This document shows positions 5,900 to 54,932 of a stretch of 64,000 nt of DNA, piece after piece. A program made the translations under genes and the position numbers. Location of the stretch: positions 1,733 through 65,732 of the forward strand of contig DATKLW010000082.1 in NCBI GenBank assembly GCA_035542215.1, written 5' to 3'. How positions within the stretch are numbered: the stretch's first letter is position 1; every line of letters begins with the position of its first letter. Source of the stretch: Thermoanaerobaculia bacterium. Its GTDB lineage: Bacteria > Acidobacteriota > Thermoanaerobaculia > UBA5066. The notes beneath the pieces were generated by a model. That model was not told the origin of the DNA and searched no databases. It saw nothing but the letters and a program-made list of their open reading frames with translations.

Positions 5900-7032
5900 T
5901 ACCGGAAGAGCTTCTTCCTGTTCCGGATGTAGTCCCGGAACACGAACGTCGCGAGATCGGTCGGGGAGGCGTAGTACGCCCGGCCGCGCGCGATCTTCGT
6001 CATCGTGTCGACGAAGTCCACGAGGGCCTCGTCGGTCGCGATCATGAACGTCGTGAGCTGGATGCCGTCGCGCCGGAGCTTCTCGGCTTCCTCGAGCGTG
6101 CGGTTCACGATCTTCAGGTCCAGCCCGAACGGGTTCTTGTAGAGCTTGCCGCCCTCGCGGATGCACGACGGCTTGCCGTCCGTGATCATGAAGATCTGCC
6201 GGTTGCGCGAGCGGCGGCGCATGAGGAGCTTGCGCGACAGGGCGAGGCCGTCTTTCGTGTTCGTGTGGAACGGCCCGACCTGCGCCCGGCTGAGCTCCTC
6301 GAGCGGCACGGAGCGCGCCTCGTCCCCGAAGAGGACGACGTCGATCGTGTCCTTCGGGTACTTCTGGAGAATGAGCTCCGTGAGCGCGAGCGCGACCTTC
6401 TTTGCGGGCGTGAAGCGGTCCTCGCCGTAGAGGATCATCGAGTGCGAGACGTCGATCGCGATCGCGGTCGCGCAGGCGCTCTGGTGCTCGACGTCGAAGA
6501 CCTCGAAGTCGGCGGGAAGGAGCGAGAGGTCGTCCGGGTCGCGGCGCGCCGCGTTCGCGACCGTCCGGATGCCGTCGAGGCGCGCGGGGTCGTCGCCGAA
6601 CTCGTACGGGCGCGTCTCGGGCAGCGGCTCGGTGCCGCCGCCGGAGCGCGGGATCGAGTGGAGCCCGGGCCCGGCCTTCTGCAGCGAGGAGAAGATCTCC
6701 TCCAGCGCGTTACGGCGGATCCGGCGCTCGCCCGGCCCCAGCAGCGCGAGGTTCCCCTCGCCGTCGCGCCCGACGATGCCCTGGCGCTCGAGCGCCTGCC
6801 GGAACGCCTCGAGGTCGACGTTCTTCCCGATGATCCCGCGGCGCTGCAGCTCCTGCATCCAGGCCATCGCCTCCTCCACGTCGCCCCCGAGGCGCGAGAC
6901 GAGGTCGAGGAAGAGCTTCAGGAGCTCTTCGTACGTCAGGAGGGACTGGAGGAGGTCGAGCGGCAGCTCTCCGTACCGGTAGTCCACGTCCCATGCTACG
7001 CCGGGACGGGGGACGGACTGGGGTATGGTCAC
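5899..7032 (-). CDS. von Willebrand factor A (vWA) domain protein, COG4867-like
   Basis: MIDAS motif D-V-S-H-S (AIDVSHSMIL), a later TDG motif (IFMITDGKPS), and a helical N-terminal domain. The GTG start at 7032 sits in a GTGA overlap with the upstream 96-codon ORF. Confidence 0.8.
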   Translation of the reverse strand: MTIPQSVPRPGVAWDVDYRYGELPLDLLQSLLTYEELLKLFLDLVSRLGGDVEEAMAWMQELQRRGIIGKNVDLEAFRQALERQGIVGRDGEGNLALLGPGERRIRRNALEEIFSSLQKAGPGLHSIPRSGGGTEPLPETRPYEFGDDPARLDGIRTVANAARRDPDDLSLLPADFEVFDVEHQSACATAIAIDVSHSMILYGEDRFTPAKKVALALTELILQKYPKDTIDVVLFGDEARSVPLEELSRAQVGPFHTNTKDGLALSRKLLMRRRSRNRQIFMITDGKPSCIREGGKLYKNPFGLDLKIVNRTLEEAEKLRRDGIQLTTFMIATDEALVDFVDTMTKIARGRAYYASPTDLATFVFRDYIRNRKKLFR

Positions 7033-43651: not shown

Positions 43652-44470
43652 TCAGTCCGCGATCCGGCGTTTCGCGACGTGAATCGCGTCCACGGGCCGC
43701 TTCCACACGCTTCGGCGCGCCTCTCCGTCGAGCCACGATTCCGCAGGGGCCGGTCTCCCGAACCGGAACCCCTGCGCGAACGGGATCCCGAGTTCCGCGA
43801 TCGTGCGTTCGTCCTCCGGGGTCTCGACGCCCTCGGCGATGACGCGGGCGCCCAGTCGGCGGGAGAGGTCCTGCAGACCCAGGAGAATCCCGGCCATCCG
43901 GGGGTTCCGGTGGACGTTCTTCACGAAGGACCGGTCCACCTTGATCCACTCGGGCGCGAGGTGGAGGAGGTGGTGGAGCCAGGGGTAGCGTGCGCCGACG
44001 TCGTCGAGGGCGAGCCGGATCCCCCGCCGGCGAAACGGAACGAGGCTCTTCGCGATCGCCCGCGCGTGCTCCCCGTCCAGCGACTCGGAGATCTCGAGGA
44101 TCACGCCCGCGGGGTCCACCTCGAGAGCGTCCATGAGCGAAAAGAGCGCGTCCCCGTCGAGCGACATCGTCCCGGCCTGGATGTTGATGAAGAGCTGGGA
44201 ACCTCTCGGGAGCGCCCGGCCGGAGCGCAGCGCCGAGTCGACGCACGCGAGGTCGAGCTGTCTCAGCACCCCGTCCTCGAGGGCGTGGCCGCGCCCGAAG
44301 AGCGTCTCGGGCATCGACAGCGCCGTGCCGCGCGGCCCGCGGAGGAGCGCCTCGAATCCGAGCTTCCTGCCGCTCGAGAGCTCGACGATGGGCTGGAAAG
44401 CCATGGACAGGAATCCGCGCGCGAGGAGAGACGCCACCTCGTCGCCGGCAGGCGCCGGACGGGCCTTCAT
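43652..44470 (-). CDS. Stand-alone EAL-domain c-di-GMP phosphodiesterase (last gene of the che-like operon)
   Basis: The ATG at 44470 is in an ATGA overlap with the cheB stop. The motifs EALLR, QLFINI, EISES, DDVG, IKVDRSF, EGVET and QGFRFGRP are all present, so it looks catalytically competent. No REC, GGDEF or sensor domain. Confidence 0.88.
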   Translation of the reverse strand: MKARPAPAGDEVASLLARGFLSMAFQPIVELSSGRKLGFEALLRGPRGTALSMPETLFGRGHALEDGVLRQLDLACVDSALRSGRALPRGSQLFINIQAGTMSLDGDALFSLMDALEVDPAGVILEISESLDGEHARAIAKSLVPFRRRGIRLALDDVGARYPWLHHLLHLAPEWIKVDRSFVKNVHRNPRMAGILLGLQDLSRRLGARVIAEGVETPEDERTIAELGIPFAQGFRFGRPAPAESWLDGEARRSVWKRPVDAIHVAKRRIAD

Positions 44471-45552
44471 CGCACCGCACGCTCGGCGCGCGCGGCCCGG
44501 AGAATCGCTCCGGCGATGCGCGAGAGCGGTTGGACCTCGCAGACCGCGCCGCGCGCGATCGCGGCCCCCGGCATTCCGAAGACGACGCAGGACGCTTCGT
44601 CCTGCGCGATCGTGTGGGCGCCGGCGAGCTTCATCTCGAGAAGGCCGTCGGCGCCGTCGGTCCCCATGCCGGTCAGGATGGCGCCGACCGCGTTGACGCC
44701 GGCGGCCTGCGCCGTCGACCAGAACAGGACGTCGGCGCTCGGGCGGTGGCGGGACACGAGCGGACCGTTCGTCACTTCCACGGAGTAGCGGGTGCCCGTC
44801 CGCCGGAGCCGCGTGTGCCGGTTGCCCGGCGCGACGAGGGCGCGCCCTTCGCGGACCGGGTCGCCGTTCTCTGCTTCCTTCACCTCGATCGTGCAGACCT
44901 CGTTCAGGCGCCGGGCGAATGCGGCCGTGAAGACCTCGGGCATGTGCTGGACGATCACGAGTCCCGGGGCGTCCGGCGAAAGCTCCTTGAGGAGCTGGCC
45001 GAGGGCCTCGGTCCCACCCGTCGACGCGGCGACGACGACGACGCGATCCGTCGAGACCGTCGGCGGCGCGCCGTGCGCGGGAAACGCCACCTTCGCGCTG
45101 ACGCTCGGCTCGGGCGGGCGCGCCGCCGGGCCGCGCCGGCGCACGCGCGCCCGCGCCGCGGCCCGGACGGAGTCCGCGAGGAGGGTCGCCGATTCCTCGA
45201 GGAAGCCCTGGACGCCGAGGCGCGGCTTCGTGACGATCTCGATCGCGCCCTCCTCGAGCGCCCGCAGCGCCGCTTCCGTCCCGGGGCCGGTCAGCGCCGA
45301 GCACACGACGACGGGGATCGGGTCGGAGCTCATGACGCTGCGAAGGAACGTGAGCCCGTCCATCCGCGGCATCTCGAGGTCGAGGAGGATCACGTCGGGC
45401 CGCGCCTTCTTGATCCGCTCGAACGCGATGATCGGGTCGGCCGCGATGTCGACGACGTGTCCCTCGCGGGCGAGCATTCCGCCGAGGACCTCGCGCACGA
45501 GCGCCGAGTCGTCCACCACGAGAACGCGGAGGGGCGGGGGCGGCGCGCTCAA
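44467..45552 (-). CDS. cheB: Chemotaxis response regulator protein-glutamate methylesterase
   Basis: REC domain (RVLVVDDSALVRE...DLEMPRMDG) plus a methylesterase domain (AASTGGTEAL, VQHMP, LTGMGTDGA). The start is proposed at the TTG at 45552 (TTGA overlap with the cheR stop). Confidence 0.9.
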   Translation of the reverse strand: MSAPPPPLRVLVVDDSALVREVLGGMLAREGHVVDIAADPIIAFERIKKARPDVILLDLEMPRMDGLTFLRSVMSSDPIPVVVCSALTGPGTEAALRALEEGAIEIVTKPRLGVQGFLEESATLLADSVRAAARARVRRRGPAARPPEPSVSAKVAFPAHGAPPTVSTDRVVVVAASTGGTEALGQLLKELSPDAPGLVIVQHMPEVFTAAFARRLNEVCTIEVKEAENGDPVREGRALVAPGNRHTRLRRTGTRYSVEVTNGPLVSRHRPSADVLFWSTAQAAGVNAVGAILTGMGTDGADGLLEMKLAGAHTIAQDEASCVVFGMPGAAIARGAVCEVQPLSRIAGAILRAARAERAVR

Positions 45553-46437: not shown

Positions 46438-48111
46438 TCAGAAGCGCCTGAAGTGACGGTCCGACTCGGCCGCATGGGATCCGACAGCGCGCTTCGTGAC
46501 GACGACGGCGGGCTGCGAGACGACCGCCCGCGCCGGAAGGGTCCGCGCCGCGTGCGTCCCTGAGACGCTCCGCGGCTCCGGCCGGGCCTGCAGCTCCGGG
46601 GCGCCCGTGCGGAAGAACGCAAGGACCTGCTGGAGGCCCTCCGCCTGGGTCGCCATCTCTTCGGCGGTCGCGGCGAACTCTTCCGCCGCGGCCGCGTTGC
46701 GCTGCGTGACCTGGTCGACCTGGTTCATGGCGCGGTTGACCTGCGTGACGCCCGACGCCTGCTCCCGGGACGCGGCGGCGACCTCCTGGACGAGCTCGGT
46801 CGTCTTGCGGATCGCGGGAACGAGCGCGCCGAGGGACTGGCTCGCGCGCTCGGCGACCGTCACGCTCGACCCGCTCAGCGTGCTGATGTCCCGGGCGGCG
46901 GTCTGGCTGCGCTCGGCGAGCTTGCGCACCTCGGCCGCCACGACCGCGAAGCCGCGGCCGTGGTCGCCGGCGCGCGCCGCCTCGATCGCGGCGTTGAGGG
47001 CGAGGAGGTTCGTCTGGTAGGCGATGTCCTCGACGAACGAGATCTTCTCCGCGATCGACCTCATCGCTCCGAGCGTTTCGGAGACGGCCTTCTCGCTCGC
47101 TTCGCCCTCGCGCGCGCCCTGCACCGCCATCTCCTCCATGCGCCGGCTGTTCTCGGCGTTCTGCGTGATCGACGCGCTCATCTCCTGGAGCGAGGCGGAG
47201 GTCTCCTGGATCGAGGAGGCCTGTTCTCCGGCGCCGCTCGAGAGCTGCTCCGATCCGGATGCGAGCTGGCGGGACGCCGCGGCCGACTGGGTCGTCGAAC
47301 GCTGGACCTGGACGAGGACTCCCTCGAACGTCTCGAGCATCTCGTTCAGCGACGCCCCCATTTCTCCGATCTCGTCCCTGCCGTGCGAGGCGATGCGCGC
47401 GGAGAGGTCTCCGCCCGCCGCGCGCCGGGCTTGCGTCGTGACGTCGACGAGCGGGCCGACCACACGCGCGGCGAAGACGAAGCCCGAGGCGACGCCGATG
47501 GCGACGAGAGCGAGGATCACGAGGATCGTCAGGATCGTCGTGCGGCTCGATGTCGCCCGGATCCGCTCGGCGAACGCCTCGGCGTTCTTCTGCCGGACCC
47601 CGGCGAGCTTCCCGAGGATCGCCCGCGCCTTCTCGAACTTCCGCTCGCCCTCGCTCATGGACAGCTCGATCGCGTCCTTCCGGGCGTCCGCGGACTCCTC
47701 CCCGAGGAGCCGGACGGCCTCGAGGGAGGACTTCTCCCAGTCCCCGTAGAGCGCCTCGAATTCGGGCCGGAGGGCCTTCTCGTCGTCGCTCGAGGGAACT
47801 GTCTTGTACTTCTCCCATGCCGCCCTCGCCAGGGTGAGCCGCAACCCGTGCTCCTTGCGCGCCCGCGCGGCTTCGTCGGACGCCTGCCTGACGAGCATGA
47901 GGCTGCGCTCTTCGACGCGCGCACGCTCCATGTCCCGGTCGATCTCCGCGATCGACGCGAGGGCGGGAAGGTCCTCACGGGTCGCGACCTGGAACGCCGA
48001 GGCCGCCCAGCGGAAATTTCCGAGGTTCCAGACGCACGCACCGGCGCCGATGAGGCTCCCGAGGAAGAACGCGCCGATGAATTTCGAGCGCAGCCTGATG
48101 TTTCGGGTCAT
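46438..48111 (-). CDS. Methyl-accepting chemotaxis protein (four-helix-bundle-like periplasmic domain + HAMP + MA domain)
   Basis: Two TM helices, HAMP, and the invariant hairpin [42 protein letters not shown]. Confidence 0.92.
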
Positions 48112-48132: not shown

Positions 48133-48702
48133 TTACTTGCCGATTGCCTTCTCGAGCCGTGTCAGGTTGACGCCCACGACGAGGACGCCGATCGGCTTGC
48201 CGAACGAGAGCACCGGGGCCGAAATCTGGATGTCATACGTGTCCGTGTCCGAGTCGAGCTCGGGCGGGCCCTGCCAGGGCATCCCGGTCCTGAAGGGGAG
48301 GTCGAACCGGGGCTGGCCCGCGTAGAAATAGTTCTCGGTCTTCTCGGTCATGGCGATCTGGTCCCCCCGCGTCCCACAGACGAAGGCGCGAACGTAGATC
48401 CCGTTCGAGCTTTCGAGCCTTCGGGCGAGGACCTTCCCGGCGTCGTTGGTCATGTAGGTCCGGAGGAGGTCGTCGCTCCGTCGAACCGTCTTCCATTTCT
48501 CGTTGTCCATGCCGCTGAGGGGCCCCATCTGGTTCTTCCAGATGACGGTCTTCACGAGGAGCGGGTCGGCGGCCCAGGCCTTGATCTGGACGATGTGACG
48601 GTCGAGCTCCTTCTGGAGCGCCGCGGTCATCTCGAACGTTGCGAGCGCCCGCCACGCGAGGACGCTCGCGAGCACGACGGCGAGGGTTGCGAGTTTTCTC
48701 AT
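48133..48702 (-). CDS. Secreted stand-alone Cache/PDC-like sensor-domain protein (paralog 2, 189 aa)
   Basis: The ATG at 48702 gives the signal peptide MRKLATLAVVLASVLA. The motifs WAADPLLVK, GMDNEKWKTVRR, YVRAF, TEKTENYFYAGQPRFDLPF and GKPIGVLVVGVNL resemble periplasmic Cache/PDC modules of receptors. No TM helix or output domain. Confidence 0.6.
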   Translation of the reverse strand: MRKLATLAVVLASVLAWRALATFEMTAALQKELDRHIVQIKAWAADPLLVKTVIWKNQMGPLSGMDNEKWKTVRRSDDLLRTYMTNDAGKVLARRLESSNGIYVRAFVCGTRGDQIAMTEKTENYFYAGQPRFDLPFRTGMPWQGPPELDSDTDTYDIQISAPVLSFGKPIGVLVVGVNLTRLEKAIGK

Positions 48703-48722
48703 GCTTGTCTCCCTTGTCTGCC

Positions 48723-49295
48723 TCACGGCTTCGAGCTCGGGTTCGAGAGCTTCGAAAGGTTCACGCCGACCACGAGGACGCCGACGGGCTTTCCGCGCGA
48801 GAGAACGGGCACCGCGATCTGGACGCCGTGAATTTCGGTCACTGTGTCGAGCTCGGGCTTTCCTTGCCACGTCTTGCCGGTCGTGAACGGAACGTCGAAC
48901 TTGGCCTGCCCCGCGTGGAGATAGCTGATCGTCTTCTCGGTGAAGGCCGCCTTCTCGCCCCGTGCGCCGTTCAGGAACGCCCTCAGGTAGAGGCCGTCCG
49001 ATTCCGAGATCTTCCGGCCGAGGAATTTCGCGGCCCCGTTCTGGGAGAGGTCCTTCACGACGTCGTCGGTCCGCCTCACGGACTTCCACTTCTCGTTGTC
49101 CATCCCCGCGATGGGGCCCTTCTCGTTCCGGTCGAGGACGGCCTTCACGACGATCGGGCTCGCGGCCCAGCCCTTCAGAACCTCGGTCTTCTGGGCCAGG
49201 ACTTTCTCGAGGTCCGGCGTGATGTCGACGGCACCGAGGGAACCTGCGAGGCCGATCACGAGGAGAGCCAGCGGCATTCTGAGGGTGGGTGTCAT
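48723..49295 (-). CDS. Secreted stand-alone Cache/PDC-like sensor-domain protein (paralog 1, 190 aa)
   Basis: The ATG at 49295 gives the signal peptide MTPTLRMPLALLVIGLAGSLGA. About half of the aligned residues are identical, by eye, to the adjacent paralog (GMDNEKWKSVRR, YLRAF, TEKTISYLHAGQAKFDVPF, GKPVGVLVVGVNL). Confidence 0.6.
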   Translation of the reverse strand: MTPTLRMPLALLVIGLAGSLGAVDITPDLEKVLAQKTEVLKGWAASPIVVKAVLDRNEKGPIAGMDNEKWKSVRRTDDVVKDLSQNGAAKFLGRKISESDGLYLRAFLNGARGEKAAFTEKTISYLHAGQAKFDVPFTTGKTWQGKPELDTVTEIHGVQIAVPVLSRGKPVGVLVVGVNLSKLSNPSSKP

Positions 49296-49324: not shown

Positions 49325-49873
49325 TCACTGGCCGGCGGCCGAGTCGGCTCCGGCGGAGGCGCCGTCGGAAGGGGGGGCGACGGACGCGACCCTCAGGAGC
49401 TCGGCGGCCGAAAGCACGCGGTCGATGTCGAGGAGAAGCACGAACCGGTCCGTGAGGCGCCCGATGCCGAGCAGGTAATCGACGCGCACCGCCGTCCCGA
49501 ATGCGGGCGCCGGCTCGATGTCTCCGGGCAGGACGTCCAGGACCTGGCTCACCGAGTCCGCCATGACGCCCATGACGACCCGCTCGCCCTCGAGGTCGGT
49601 CTCGACGACGACGATGCAGGTCCGGCGCGTGACGGCGCTCGGAGGGAGGCCGAACTTGACCGCGAGGTCGATGACGGGGACGACGCTTCCGCGGAGGTTC
49701 ATGACGCCGCGGACCCACGGCGGCGTCGCCGGGACCCGCGTGACAGCGTCGTATTCGATGATCTCCTTGACGCGGAGAATCCCGATCGCACACTCGTTCC
49801 CGGCGATGAAGAAGCCGAGGTACTGAGCCGAGGCCGTTGGTCCGAGGGTCTCTTCCATCTTCGTTTTCCCCAC
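49325..49873 (-). CDS. cheW: Chemotaxis coupling protein CheW
   Basis: CheW domain: YLGFFIAGNECAIGILRVKEII...PWVRGVMNLRGSVVPVIDL...LLLDIDRVL. Confidence 0.9.
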   Translation of the reverse strand: MGKTKMEETLGPTASAQYLGFFIAGNECAIGILRVKEIIEYDAVTRVPATPPWVRGVMNLRGSVVPVIDLAVKFGLPPSAVTRRTCIVVVETDLEGERVVMGVMADSVSQVLDVLPGDIEPAPAFGTAVRVDYLLGIGRLTDRFVLLLDIDRVLSAAELLRVASVAPPSDGASAGADSAAGQ

Positions 49874-49875
49874 GG

Positions 49876-51510
49876 TCAGGCCCCGCCTGCCGGCGCGGCG
49901 AAGGCCGCCATCTCACCCGACGCACCGAGCGCGGGGCGCCCGGGCACAGCCGCCTCCTGGCGGAGCGGAATTCTCGTCGCATCGACCGGGTGCCGCGCGC
50001 GTCCGGCGTCGGCTTTCCCGGCCCGGAAGAAGGACATGAGCTCCTGGAGCGCCTCGGCCTGGGCCGCCATCTCCTCCGCCGTCGAGGCGAGCTCCTCGGA
50101 CGCCGCCGCGTTGCGCTGCGTGACGTCATCCATCTGCGTCATCGTCCGGTTCATCTGGGAGACGCCCGACGCCTGCTCGGCCGTGGCGGCCGCGACCTCC
50201 TGGACGAGATCGGCGGTCTTCCGGATCGCGGGAACGAGCGCGGAGATGAGCTGGCCCGAGCGCTCGGCGACCCGGACGCTCGAGGATGCGACCTCGGAGA
50301 TCTCCCTGGCGGCTTGCTGACTTCTCTCGGCGAGCTTGCGGACCTCGGTCGCGACGACCGCGAAGCCCCTGCCGTGCTCGCCCGCGCGCGCGGCCTCGAT
50401 CGCGGCGTTGAGCGCGAGGAGGTTCGTCTGATAGGCGATCTCCTCGATGATCACGATCCTCTCCGCAATCGTCTTCATCGCGCGGACGGTCTCCGAGACC
50501 ACGCGGCCGCTCTCCTCGCCCTCCTCGGCTCCACGGCGCGCCATCCGCTCCATCTCGCGGCCGTTCTCGCGGTTCTGGCTGATCGACGCGCTCATCTGCT
50601 CGAGGGACGCCGTCGTCTCCTCGACCGAGGCCGCCTGCTCGCTCGACGACTCCGAGAGCGACTGGCACGACGCGGACACCTGTTGCGCGGCCTGGGCGAC
50701 GGCGCGGGCCCCCTCGTCGACCTGCCCGAGGACACGCCTCAGGGTCTGGGCCATGTCCTGCATCGCCGCGTCGAGCTGGCCTGTCTCGTCGCGGTGGATG
50801 GCGACGTCCTCTCCCCCGAGGTCGCCCCGCGCGATCCGCTCGGCGCGGGCGACGGCCGCCTTCAACGGCACGGCGATGCTCCGTGCGACGGCCCAGCCGA
50901 TCCCCACTGCGAGAAGGGCCGCAAAGACGATGAAGACGGTCATGACCTGGCGGGCGGCACGGACCTTTTGAGCCGCCTCCTCCGTGGCCTGGACGAGGCC
51001 TTCGTTCTGCGCCGCGAGAAACCGGTACCAGGCGGCGCGGTACTCCAGGAGCTTCGGGACCATGACGTCGTGGGCGACCGCCACGGCGGCGTCGCGCTTG
51101 CCGCTTTCGAGGAGACTTCTCGCGTGGGCCCGGCTCTCGAGGTACGGGCTGCGCAGCGCCTTGACCTCGGCGAAAAGCGCCCGGTCGTGGTCGGACGCGA
51201 GGAGGGGCTCGATTTTCGCGAGCCCGGCCCCGATCAGGTTGCTGTTCTCCTGGTTCTGCGCGAGGAGCGCCTGTTCGGGCTGCCCTCCCGAAACGAGGAA
51301 AAGCTGCATCGTGATCCGCGCGTTGTCGACCGAGCGCTCGAGGACCTCGTTCGTGAGCGTCACGAGCGCGAACCGCTCGCGCGTGACCGTCCGGAGGTTC
51401 GTGTCCAGCCGCGTCGTCGTCCTCAAGCCGAACCAGCCGATCGTGAGGGCGAAGACGATGACGATCCCAAACCCGGCGAGGAGCCTTTGCCCGATGCGGA
51501 ACGATCTCAC
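49876..51510 (-). CDS. Methyl-accepting chemotaxis protein (4HB-like sensor + HAMP + MA domain)
   Basis: Start re-set to the GTG at 51510, with a GGAGGG Shine-Dalgarno 6 nt upstream. Two TM helices, HAMP, and the hairpin [42 protein letters not shown]. The 263 upstream codons of the track ORF overlap cheA out of frame. Confidence 0.9.
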
Positions 51511-51512
51511 GC

Positions 51513-53219
51513 TTACCCTCCAATTGCGGCGAGGGTCCCGTGCGGGTCGGCCGTGTCGGGAGCCCGCTCGTTCAGGACCTGCTTGAGAAGCTTCGAAACG
51601 TCGAGGATCAGCGCTGCGCGCCCGTCCCCGAGGATGGCGCTTCCCGCGACGGCCACGACGCCGCGGAAGAGCGCCCCGAGAGGCTTGATGACGACCTGGT
51701 GCCCGCCGAGGAGCGCGTCCACGACGAACCCGGCCTGGCCCGACTCGCTCCGGACCACGACGACGTTCTCGCGCGCGGAGGGCGGCCCGTCGATGTCGAA
51801 ATGCTCGCGGAGTCTCAGCCATGGAAGCGGAACGCCGCGGAGGCCCATGAGGCCCGAGAGGCCCGCTCCGCGGGCGTCCGCCGGGAGATCGAGGCACTCG
51901 ACGACGGAGTCCATCGGGAGGACGAACGACTCGCCCGCCGCGCGGACCACGAAGCCGTCGATGAGGGCGAGCGTGAGCGGCAGGCGGATCCGAAACGTCG
52001 TCCCGCGGCCCGGCTCGCTCTGCACCTCGATGGAGCCCCGAAGCGCCTCGACGTCGCGGAGGACGACGTCCATCCCGACGCCGCGGCCCGACAGTTCCGT
52101 GATGCCGGCGGCCGTCGAGACGCCGGGCGCGAAGACGAGCTCGAAGGCTTCGGATCCACGCGGCTCGTCGGTCCCGACGAGCCCCAGCGCGCGGGCGCGC
52201 TCGACAAGGAGCCGGCGGTTGATGCCGGCGCCGTCGTCGGAGAGCTCGATCACGATCGCGCCCGCGTCGTGGTACGCGCGGATCCGGAGCGTGCCCCACG
52301 GCGTCTTGCCGGCGGCTGTCCTCACGTCCGGCGCCTCGATCCCGTGGTCGACCGCGTTCCGCACCATGTGGGTGAGGGGGTCGCGGATCTTCTCGATGAC
52401 GCGCATGTCGAGCTCGATCTCGCCGCCGTCGATCGAAAGCCGGACCTGCTTGCCGAGCGCCCGAGACACGTCGCGCACCGTGCGCGCAAACTGGTGAAGC
52501 GTCGGGCCGATCGGGATCATGCGGATGCGCGTGACGAGCTCCTGGAGGTCCGCCTCGAGCGTGTCGGCCTCGCGGTGGATCTCGAGGGCCTTGCCGGCCT
52601 CGGGCGTCCCGCCGTGTTCGAGGTGCTGCCGCAGCCGGCCCCGCAAGACCGCGATCTCCCCGACGAGGTCGAGCATCTGGTCGAGCTTCTCGACGTCGAC
52701 GCGCAGCGTGCGCGTGGGGAGGTTCAGGTCGGGAACCTCGTTCGCGCGGTCCGCCGCGCGGCGGCGCGGGTGCACGACGGCCGCGGCGCGGGTCGCGCCC
52801 GGCGCGTCCTGCTCCCGCGCGCTGGACACGCGCGCGAGGAGCGCGCGATGGGACGGCTGCATCTCGTCGAGCCCGCTCGCGGCGTCGGCGAGGAGTTGGC
52901 GGAGTGCGTCGACGGACTCGAGGAGGAGCGTCACGAGCTCCGGCGTGACGGCCAGGCTCCGGTTGCGGACGCGCTCGAGGAGGTCCTCGAGGATGTGAGT
53001 GAACTCGGTGAGGGCGCTGAAGCCGAGGGTGGCCGAGTTTCCCTTCAGGGTGTGCGCGGCACGGAAGATCGCCTGAAGGAGCTCGTCGTCGCCCGGGTGC
53101 TCCTCGAGCGCCACGAGCGCCTCCTCCATCTGGACGAGGCGCTCCTCGGCTTCCGCCAGGAACACTCCCAGAAGGGCCTTGCGGTCGAACTCGGAGCCGG
53201 ACGCGTCGCTCGTCGTCAC
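51513..53219 (-). CDS. cheA: Chemotaxis histidine kinase CheA (Hpt, dimerisation, HATPase and CheW-like domains; no fused REC)
   Basis: The GTG at 53219 is in a GTGA overlap with the cheD stop. Hpt motif [17 protein letters not shown] box [14 protein letters not shown]1 DDGAGI, G2 [10 protein letters not shown], and a C-terminal CheW-like P5 domain. Confidence 0.9.
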
Positions 53220-53743
53220 AGCGTCTTCACCGAGACGTCTCCCGACGCGGTCCGGAAGACGATCTTGCGGCCTCGCGTCCCGCCGACCTCGCTCTGGACG
53301 ACGGGGATTCCCGCTTCCTCGAGGAACTCGAGCGCGACGGCGACGTTCTGCGCGCCGATCGGGACCCGGTCGCCCGCCGGCTCGAACTGCGATGCGCCGC
53401 CGAAAACGCGCGCGGTCAGGTTCCGGCGCTCGCAGCCGAGCGTGAGGATTCTCTCGAGGAGGATCTCCATCGCGCTGCGCCCGAAGCGGCCCGCGGAGCT
53501 CTCGTCGCGCGTCCGGTGGGGGAGCAGGAAATGGTTCAGGCCGCCGTGCCGGGTCGCGCCGTCCCAGAAGCACACGCAGACGCACGAGCCGAGGACTGTC
53601 GAGACGGCGAGCGCATCGGCCGTCACGAGCAGCTCGCCCGGATAGAGATACACGCTGGGGACCCCCTGGTCCTCCCGGCCCGCCGGGCGCTCGTTCCGCG
53701 CGAGGGCGCGTGCGAGAGGCGTGGGGACGCGGGAGTCCGCCAT
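53216..53743 (-). CDS. cheD: Chemoreceptor glutamine deamidase CheD
   Basis: The ATG at 53743 gives [10 protein letters not shown]...[13 protein letters not shown]...GGLNHFLLP...[11 protein letters not shown], the CheD signature. It overlaps the upstream stop by 1 nt. Confidence 0.85.
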
Positions 53744-54501
53744 CAGTGCTTTCTGCCAGCGGACGTGCCGGAAAGCAGGGCCGACGAGGCGAGGGCGGTG
53801 CCGGCCTCGGCCGCGAGAAGGTTCAGGAGGTCGTGGTCGATGGGCTCGAGCCGCCCGGCCTTCTGCGGGAGAAGGTTGAACAGCGTGATGACGAAGGCGA
53901 CCGAGTCGCGGAATTTCACGGGGAAGCATGCGGTGATGCCTTCGCCGTCGACGCCCGGCGCAACGGGCAGGTAGGGCTGTCCGGTCAGCGCCGTGCGGCC
54001 GATGGAGCCCTCTCCGAGGGCGATCTCGGCGGCGCCGAGCGCCTCGGCGCCCTTCGAGGCCGCCAGCGTGAGCCTGCCGTCCTTGACCTCGAAAACGGCG
54101 ACCTGTTCGCAGCCGACGAGGAACTCGATGATGTCGATGATGACGGCGAGGATCTCCTCGCGCTGGAGCGAAGAGTGGAGGCGCACGCTTGCGACGTAGA
54201 GGTTGGCGAGCGCCGTGTTCTGCTGCTCGACGAGGACGTACTCCTCGACGTAGCGCCGGTTTTCCGCGGCGATCTCCGCGAGCTTCCGCTCGAGCTTGAC
54301 CTCCTCGAGCTTGTGCCGGTCGATCGTCTCGCGGTTTGTGAGGAGCTCTTCCTCCAGCCGCGCTTTGTCGAGCTGGAGGGTCGCGGACGCGACGCGGAGC
54401 TTCTCGTTCTCGCCCAGCAGATCCTGGACGTAACGGTGGGTGTCCGCCTGGACGCGCCGGACGTAGGCCTCGAGCGAATCGCGTTCTCCGGTCGGCGCCA
54501 T
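53743..54501 (-). CDS. Coiled-coil + GAF-like domain protein (paralog B, 252 aa)
   Basis: The ATG at 54501 lies 1 nt after the cheY stop. The N-terminal ~110 aa are heptad-rich (LRVASATLQLDKARLEEELL...LERKLAEIAAENRRY) and end in ALANLYVAS. The C-terminal ~130 aa are GAF-like (ILAVIIDIIEFLVGCEQVAVFEV...GSIGRTALTGQPY...LLNLLAAEAGTAL). Confidence 0.65.
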   Translation of the reverse strand: MAPTGERDSLEAYVRRVQADTHRYVQDLLGENEKLRVASATLQLDKARLEEELLTNRETIDRHKLEEVKLERKLAEIAAENRRYVEEYVLVEQQNTALANLYVASVRLHSSLQREEILAVIIDIIEFLVGCEQVAVFEVKDGRLTLAASKGAEALGAAEIALGEGSIGRTALTGQPYLPVAPGVDGEGITACFPVKFRDSVAFVITLFNLLPQKAGRLEPIDHDLLNLLAAEAGTALASSALLSGTSAGRKH

Positions 54502-54502
54502 C

Positions 54503-54874
54503 TCAGTCCCCCAGCACATTGCGGACTTTGGTCAGGAGCTCGAGCCCGTTGACCGGCTTCGTGACGTAGTCGGCGGCGCCGGCCGTGAAGCCGCTCTCGA
54601 CGCTCTCGCCCTCGCCGCGGGTCGTGACCATGATCACGGGAATCGCCTTCGTCTCGTCTCGCCCCTTGAGCGCCGCGCAGGCTTCGAAGCCGTTCATCTT
54701 CGGCATGACGACGTCGAGAAGGACGAGGTCGGGCCGCTCGCGGACAGCGGCCTCGACGCCCTGCTGCCCGTCCTTGGCGACGAGGAGCTCGTAGTTCGCC
54801 TTGCTCAGGATCATCTTGGCCATCATCAAGCTCGTCTCCGAGTCGTCGACGAGCAGGATCCGTTTCCGCGCCAT
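54503..54874 (-). CDS. cheY: Single-domain CheY-like response regulator
   Basis: The ATG at 54874 has AAGGAGG upstream. Sequence MARKRILLVDDSETSLMM...DLVLLDVVMPKMNG...PVIMVTT...DYVTKP. Confidence 0.88.
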   Translation of the reverse strand: MARKRILLVDDSETSLMMAKMILSKANYELLVAKDGQQGVEAAVRERPDLVLLDVVMPKMNGFEACAALKGRDETKAIPVIMVTTRGEGESVESGFTAGAADYVTKPVNGLELLTKVRNVLGD

Positions 54875-54932
54875 GGGGGTGGCCTCCTTGTCTCTCTGGT
54901 CTCTGGGGTTCTCGGTCGGGGTCATCACGCGC

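Follow-up and report, generated by a model that had tools for sequence, protein, structure and literature searches.

In a Thermoanaerobaculia bacterium (GCA_035542215.1, contig DATKLW010000082.1, positions 1,733–65,732, a stretch of 64,000 nucleotides (nt) hereafter called the window), a long chemosensory operon on the minus strand codes for two adjacent small proteins, X1 (P0001, 189 aa; 48133..48702, minus strand) and X2 (P0002, 190 aa; 48723..49295, minus strand), each predicted to be a secreted, stand-alone single-Cache/PDC protein. X2 is the conservative paralog, and X1 the divergent one that lies proximal to the gene for MCP1 (557 aa; 46438..48111, minus strand), a methyl-accepting chemotaxis protein (MCP). 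We lean, if only by a little, towards seeing X1 and X2 as dedicated periplasmic co-sensors of MCP1. Functional coupling of any kind between members of this family, here termed X, and the four-helix-bundle (4HB) sensor of such a receptor is the broader claim, and one that we regard as probable.

Under this proposal, Sec-dependent export and cleavage of the signal peptide would yield a mature protein of ~167 aa, which would bind a small molecule, probably an anionic one, in the canonical PDC pocket. In its liganded or unliganded form, X would then dock onto the TarH-type four-helix bundle of MCP1 and alter its signaling to CheA/CheW, paralleling the action of maltose-binding protein on Tar with a Cache fold in its stead. 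The conserved unit would be the Cache protein together with the 4HB sensor, with the output being exchangeable: an MCP module here and a GGDEF domain in Deefgea. Ligand binding, the contact between X and MCP1, and the direction of its effect are thus parts of the proposal.

Stand-alone proteins predicted to be secreted and to have a Cache fold

X1 and X2 share 48% identity across 167 residues (BLASTP, E = 7e-59), a similarity far beyond chance. This bears out the original prediction, which had described adjacent ~190-aa open reading frames (ORFs) with shared blocks identical in about one residue out of two; the coordinates were confirmed, and all four motifs that it quoted, namely GMDNEKWK(S/T)VRR, Y(L/V)RAF, TEKT..Y...GQ..FD(V/L)PF and GKP(V/I)GVLVVGVNL, are present. 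Each protein has one N-terminal hydrophobic stretch (residues ~3–27) with an AxA-like site at its end, ALA↓TF in X1 and LGA↓VD in X2, and the predicted signal peptides comprise residues 1–21 of X1 (48640–48702, minus strand) and 1–22 of X2 (49230–49295, minus strand). An AxA-type site after a hydrophobic N-terminus is common to the whole family (consensus LAWA↓AFEVTP). We found no lipobox cysteine, twin-arginine motif or membrane helix beyond the N-terminal stretch in either sequence, and searches of both against Pfam and NCBIfam recovered no output domain, with NCBIfam giving no match at all. Hence, the earlier description of a cleavable-looking signal peptide, with no further transmembrane (TM) helix or output domain, holds at the level of prediction; the peptides look to be of the Sec type, and the two proteins are most likely exported to the periplasm. 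We also considered whether they derive from an MCP sensor broken up by a split or a frameshift; this is ruled out, as MCP1 has a complete TM–4HB–TM sensor and the homologs of X stand alone everywhere.

An AlphaFold model of X2, computed with a 37-sequence alignment (pLDDT 86.4, pTM 0.81), displays N-terminal helices (residues 27–98) followed by a five-stranded antiparallel sheet (strands 103–109, 115–118, 148–150, 155–166 and 169–179), with a helix at 131–139. The top Foldseek matches of this model in the PDB are all PDC/Cache sensor domains, namely those of KinD, DctB, WalK, CitA, DcuS and Tlp3 (E 1e-6 to 1e-4, probability 1.00), with target-normalized TM-scores of 0.68–0.69 for the single-module CitA and DcuS domains. 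Structure prediction and structural comparison thus agree with the Cache/PDC fold that had originally been surmised. Pfam matches of X1 and X2 were sub-threshold only: MCP-like_PDC_1 at E 7e-4 and 2e-3 (for X2 this is the best match, at 20.4 bits versus a cut-off of 27), along with dCache_1 and sCache_3_2. Sub-threshold matches to dCache_1 were likewise seen in 28 of 37 family members (best E 6.7e-6), with the scores listed being 12–36 bits against a 45-bit cut-off, and the family profile detected nothing among the PDB sequences at E ≤ 1. On the strength of its match to the PDC sensor domains, the X2 model indicates that X1 and X2 are single PDC/Cache modules of a divergent branch for which there is no Pfam model.

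Two other identities were tried. Neither X1 and X2 nor the 37 family members matched any Pfam family of solute-binding proteins, and the predicted fold is PDC rather than bilobed. A heme-Cache identity (DUF3365) is ruled out, there being no CXXCH motif in X1 or X2 and no match to PF11845; X2 has no cysteine and X1 a single one.

The stand-alone architecture is typical of the family. A word-indexed search recovered 344 relatives, and the 120 of these that were listed are 140–224 aa long and ~50–78% identical to X2 across most of its length; the family alignment has 23 invariant columns. An exhaustive profile search of 1.84 billion cluster representatives yielded 1333 clusters at E ≤ 1e-3, of which 465 reach E ≤ 1e-10. 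Among the best 150 of the 1333 clusters, 140 are of 270 aa or less, and none shows the order Cache module, membrane helix, output domain. The homologs are therefore almost all stand-alone proteins of ~190 aa and not fused to MCPs, which supports the detached status that had been proposed for this pair. The one MCP fusion seen is P0124 (775 aa, metagenomic), in which a 4HB–HAMP–MCP protein, its MCP not being of the partner type described below, runs into a C-terminal X module that has no signal peptide. We suspect merged gene calls or a lost stop codon; were the fusion real, its Cache module would be cytoplasmic.

A few other architectures were observed at the fringes of the family, whose distant members are annotated solely as "hypothetical protein". 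In the secreted proteins P0223, P0266, P0206 and P0267, the Cache module is C-terminal to a region resembling a periplasmic solute-binding protein, and in P0216 it is followed by a region that appears, by eye, esterase- or peptidase-like. These fusions possibly hint at what the family binds.

Association with a TarH/4HB sensor subfamily

A scan with one genome per species recovered 70 X loci from the Acidobacteriota, Methylomirabilota, Rokubacteria, Competibacteraceae, Deefgea, Planctomycetota (including Brocadiaceae), Nitrospirota, Syntrophaceae and Verrucomicrobiota. With a profile derived from the first 215 residues of the proteins encoded downstream of X, we found the partner sensor in 47 of the 70 loci, starting 4–245 nt past the X stop codon, with E-values of 1e-30 to 1e-102; the other 4HB MCPs of the same operons score only 1e-5 to 1e-15 against the same profile. 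This difference indicates that the putative partner of X is one specific TarH/4HB sensor subfamily. When the 13 loci of a divergent clade, the partial locus L072 and the fragmentary loci L075 and L076 are set aside, the sensor is present in 47 of the remaining 54, which represent about eight phyla. In some long-read metagenome-assembled genomes (MAGs), X or the partner sensor is split over two to three frames (L073:5977–6571, L074:5931–6602 and L032:~7100), and these may be assembly frameshifts rather than pseudogenes.

MCP1 belongs to this subfamily. It is organized as TM1, a TarH/4HB periplasmic sensor, TM2, HAMP and MCPsignal, with membrane helices at residues 12–30 and 186–222 and a sensor module spanning residues 1–212 (47476..48111, minus strand). 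The sensor matches 4HB_MCP_1 (E 8.4e-8, 32.4 bits, cut-off 27) and TarH (E 1.4e-6, 28.7 bits, cut-off 25.2). The periplasmic motifs of the subfamily, PA...DRDMQQA.VAERSLMF and EDTP.ARRDAIDLS, take the forms PA...DRDM..A.VEERSLM and AR(K/R)DAI(E/D)LS in MCP1.

The gene neighborhoods vary around a constant pair. A close relative keeps the whole operon, including the tandem X genes; a Methylomirabilis MAG has a single X between cheW and a 4HB MCP; and a gammaproteobacterial MAG carries X and a 4HB MCP as an isolated unit of just two genes, without che genes in the vicinity. In Deefgea, this sensor leads into a GGDEF domain and not into an MCP module (L031:5968–7614 in Deefgea sp. CFH1-16, the only locus from a cultured strain, and L033:5968–8028 in a MAG). 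The nearest relatives of both the X and the sensor of Deefgea are from Rokubacteria, which indicates that the pair was transferred together as a unit and joined to a new output. Thus, the arrangement is not peculiar to this operon but is a mobile two-gene module that also occurs with a GGDEF enzyme.

The co-occurrence is also exclusive at the level of whole genomes. First, in a search of 301 Acidobacteriota genomes, strong matches to X and the sensor were found only in the genome containing the window, which has X in two copies and a single sensor of this kind, and in one congener; they are adjacent in both, and two other congeners have neither. Second, among 151 Methylomirabilota genomes, 10 have X and eight have the sensor subfamily (E ≤ 1e-20); all eight sensors have X 24–80 nt upstream on the same contig, and the subfamily is absent at this threshold from the 141 genomes lacking X (hypergeometric chance ~1e-11, with relatedness ignored). 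Third, five diverse X-bearing genomes each contain exactly one such sensor, adjoining X. When loci are compared in pairs, identity in X correlates with identity in the sensor (r = 0.59, a value reached by none of 2000 permutations), with X being the more conserved of the two (e.g., 60% versus ~40%).

These observations bear on the reading in which X acts alone in the periplasm, for instance in binding, in buffering or as the carrier of a transporter or enzyme, and is merely co-regulated with the MCP without ever contacting it, perhaps since the two handle a common compound. It could draw on the 13-locus clade that lacks a 4HB partner and lies beside Tct-type transporter, epimerase and TerC genes, on the rare fusions to domains resembling solute-binding proteins and esterases, and on the docking result given below. 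However, the partner sensor always adjoins X (8/8, 2/2 and 5/5 genomes in the three surveys above), and the pair persists when the output switches from MCP to GGDEF. Because the link between X and the sensor is exclusive and independent of the output, co-regulation alone appears insufficient, and we judge this reading quite unlikely.

Several points weigh against the co-sensor proposal. Operon history alone can yield both the co-occurrence and the correlated divergence of X and the sensor. The 13 loci of the divergent clade exist without any 4HB partner, and the fold can thus work without a receptor. No Cache model of Pfam matched X1, X2 or the 37 family members above its gathering threshold. 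Finally, a docking model gave no confident placement of X1 on the sensor. The stop codon of X1 (TAA) and the start of MCP1 are in frame and 24 nt apart, as are their counterparts in 12 other loci, and we modeled X1 and residues 1–212 of MCP1 with AlphaFold as a read-through fusion in which the TAA is read as Gly, using the 13 natural fusions as paired rows and 34 unpaired rows. Each domain is well folded in the model (pLDDT 90.1), the sensor as four long helices (197–268, 276–300, 306–333 and 338–408 in construct numbering) that are continuous with the two membrane helices; the pTM of 0.50 is about what is expected of undocked domains, there being no calibrating control. The construct has a short non-native linker, a monomeric sensor, the divergent paralog X1 and few paired rows, and the run provided no contact map. 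The model thus lends no support to a defined interface and, given these limits, also carries little weight as evidence against one.

Within the window, the genes of the operon run in the order REC, GAF protein, CheD, CheA, MCP2, CheW, X2, X1, MCP1, CheR, CheB and EAL protein. As originally stated, the X pair lies between cheW and an MCP gene: CheW (182 aa; 49325..49873, minus strand) is encoded directly upstream of X2 and MCP1 follows X1, with gaps of 29 nt (cheW–X2), 20 nt (X2–X1) and 21 nt (X1–MCP1). Shine–Dalgarno-like motifs precede the ATG codons of both X2 (AAGGAG) and X1 (GGGAG). The operon starts with the REC and GAF genes (53743–54928, minus strand) and ends with an EAL phosphodiesterase gene (43652–44500, minus strand); given these, the system may control c-di-GMP or another non-flagellar process and not swimming.

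The second receptor, MCP2 (546 aa; 49876..51516, minus strand), is read from a GTG start behind a GGAGG motif and has two TM helices around a helical periplasmic domain of ~150 aa, with a weak 4HB match. Hence, the initial attribution of 4HB-type sensors to both MCPs of the operon is clear for MCP1 and tentative for MCP2. MCP2 is an unlikely partner of X: its sensor is outside the associated subfamily, and in two of the five genomes that keep the tandem pair it is either absent (L009) or without a periplasmic sensor (L001), with both X genes retained. Both X paralogs therefore most likely serve MCP1. The proposal that they are detached ligand-binding partners of the MCPs accordingly finds strong comparative support for MCP1, with which X is unfused, syntenic and exclusively co-occurring, but does not extend to both receptors.

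Constraint, tandem duplication and the clade without a partner

A maximum-likelihood tree of 71 X sequences places 13 of the loci lacking a 4HB partner in one clade (SH-aLRT 100) with a long stem, comprising members from Methylomirabilota and Syntrophaceae (among them L039, L041, L044, L046, L048, L050, L051 and L055, with X at ~5900–6550 in most). A TerC-family membrane protein, identified by Pfam, is encoded directly downstream in four of these loci, and, judging by ORF size, gene order and N-terminal sequence alone, other neighbors inspected appear to encode an NAD-dependent epimerase-like protein and Tct-type tripartite transporter subunits.

Comparison of this clade with the rest of the family separates two sets of conserved positions. 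Residues N57, G60, P61, N67, W70, K71, E114, K121, T122, Y125, H127, K132, D134, W143, Q144, E148 and Q159 are invariant in all groups, and the K121–Q159 portion of this set falls in the region from strand 2 to strand 4, where PDC domains usually bind their ligand, as placed by secondary structure only. The polar residues of this pocket region (K121, T122, Y125, H127, K132, D134, W143, Q144, E148 and Q159) are kept even in the clade without a partner, which argues for a conserved ligand for the family, and their side chains, in part basic and in part polar, would fit an anion or organic acid. The second set, R74, R75, E105 and F149/E151/S152/Q154, is conserved only among the 4HB-coupled members, with R74/R75 being replaced by P/E in the partner-less clade; we infer that these are candidate interface residues.

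This second set would also suit a different mode of action, namely that X modulates the 4HB receptor from the periplasm independently of any ligand, setting its baseline or reporting the state of the envelope. Analogous modulators are CpxP acting on CpxA, QseG on QseE, and YycH/YycI on WalK. The evidence from synteny and exclusivity applies to such a modulator equally, and R74, R75 and positions 149–154 of the 4HB-coupled members would fit a protein–protein interface. Nevertheless, the PDC fold is the classic small-molecule-binding module, and the most strongly invariant polar residues are in the pocket region and persist in the receptor-less clade, which points to a ligand. We consider this alternative unlikely.

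A single duplication at the base of an Acidobacteriota clade (support 99) gave rise to X1 and X2, and both copies are found in the same order in all five of its genomes; the tandem duplication is specific to this clade, and most lineages carry just one X alongside this sensor. X2 keeps all the family-invariant residues, whereas X1 departs from the family consensus at K115Q, F118M, H127Y and K132R. Across the X1 orthologs, K115 is mostly replaced by Q and K132 mostly by R, while H127 and F118 are lost with varying replacements. Thus, X2 would retain the ancestral pocket, and the changes in the pocket region of X1 suggest that the pair probably provides two specificities or a heteromer on the same receptor.

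A more extreme version of the latter would make X1 and X2 an obligate heterodimer, imitating a double-Cache (dCache) module, as the sole functional unit on MCP1. The strict retention and order of both paralogs in 5/5 genomes fits this, and the loss in X1 of otherwise invariant residues (K115, H127 and, by replacement with R, K132) would fit a non-binding or specialized subunit. Yet, since a single X accompanies the same sensor in most lineages, the basic mechanism can do without a heterodimer, and we regard this version as very unlikely.

Relationship to known binding-protein systems

In the wider superfamily, we inspected six distant members, which score E 1e-21 to 1e-43 with the profile. Of these, four sit 10–90 nt upstream of an MCP, three of these MCPs having helical/4HB-like sensors and one a dCache-like sensor; of the remaining two, one is beside Lpt genes and one is on a short, uninformative contig. 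The partner-sensor profile detected no similarity in the MCPs beside these distant members. The member with the dCache-like neighbor, P0211 (L081:4426–10603), is placed between cheW and an 856-aa MCP with a dCache-like periplasmic region, indicating that secreted Cache proteins are not restricted to 4HB partners. Hence, secreted Cache proteins paired with MCPs probably extend well beyond the core family. More generally, we put at about even the prospect that the family constitutes a widespread class of soluble Cache-fold co-receptors, each forming an obligate two-protein sensor with a dedicated TarH/4HB subfamily and disseminated between phyla as a two-gene cassette with varied outputs. If so, Cache-mediated indirect sensing would be common and overlooked, given a superfamily of more than 1000 clusters, many of them directly upstream of MCPs.

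Indirect sensing via a periplasmic binding protein is textbook biology, and no class of extracellular sensor modules is larger than that of the Cache domains. To our knowledge, every known receptor binder is a transporter-type solute-binding protein, and our literature searches turned up no account of a Cache-fold protein partnering a 4HB receptor. Our analysis suggests that X is an uncharacterized, widespread family for which binding-protein-dependent sensing with a Cache-fold binder would be new. If true, a Cache module released from the membrane and tied to a 4HB receptor would represent a new design principle of bacterial receptors, and would help explain what a TarH subfamily and hundreds of secreted proteins annotated as "hypothetical" do. 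The module could be ported and tested, with a cultured carrier in Deefgea and Tar-hybrid assays in E. coli at hand, and is common in poorly understood lineages, including the NC10 methane oxidizers, anammox Planctomycetota, Competibacter, Rokubacteria and Thermoanaerobaculia.

A 2021 review of binding-protein-mediated signaling lists only solute-binding proteins, from 13 families, as receptor partners (PMC8050422). Several of these act on 4HB domains and several are encoded beside the signaling gene; examples include MBP–Tar, GBP/RBP–Trg, DppA–Tap and LsrB–Tsr of E. coli, as well as XylFII–LytS, TorT–TorS, GlnH–GlnX and NspS–MbaA (PMC8050422). As in the systems of the MBP–Tar type, X would be a separate secreted binder for a receptor whose periplasmic domain is, as is often the case there, a four-helix bundle, with the coupling of X to its sensor being proposed from genomes. 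Like TorT, XylFII, NspS and GlnH, X is encoded beside the signaling gene and not with a transporter. Unlike the bilobed, transporter-type solute-binding proteins, it is predicted to be a single PDC/Cache module of half their size, with one dedicated TarH subfamily as its putative partner.

Among Cache proteins, X resembles the sensor domains of CitA, DcuS, KinD, WalK and DctB in its long N-terminal helix, antiparallel sheet and predicted ligand site between strands 2 and 4. However, those domains lie between two TM helices and are linked to kinases, whereas X ends right after its last strand and has only a cleavable-looking signal peptide. Cache domains are reported to be attached to an output in more than 90% of cases, an exception being the stand-alone heme-Cache proteins (sCache_heme, DUF3365/Tll0287), which have a probable redox role (Deshpande et al. 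2026 preprint from the Zhulin and Crane groups, PMC12889525). That preprint reports neither a gene-neighborhood analysis nor a receptor partner for them (PMC12889525). X is like sCache_heme in being a single Cache module with no output domain, for X with secretion as a prediction, and unlike it in having neither CXXCH, which sCache_heme has in an insertion between strands 3 and 4, nor a PF11845 match.

For the X and 4HB–GGDEF pair of Deefgea, the closest parallels are the YfiR–YfiN and PruR–DcpA systems, the folds being unrelated and the likeness one of description. In both, a small periplasmic partner other than a solute-binding protein, encoded beside a membrane c-di-GMP enzyme, controls that enzyme by way of its periplasmic domain. 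In Agrobacterium, the pterin-binding periplasmic protein PruR controls the GGDEF–EAL enzyme DcpA (PMC11194511).

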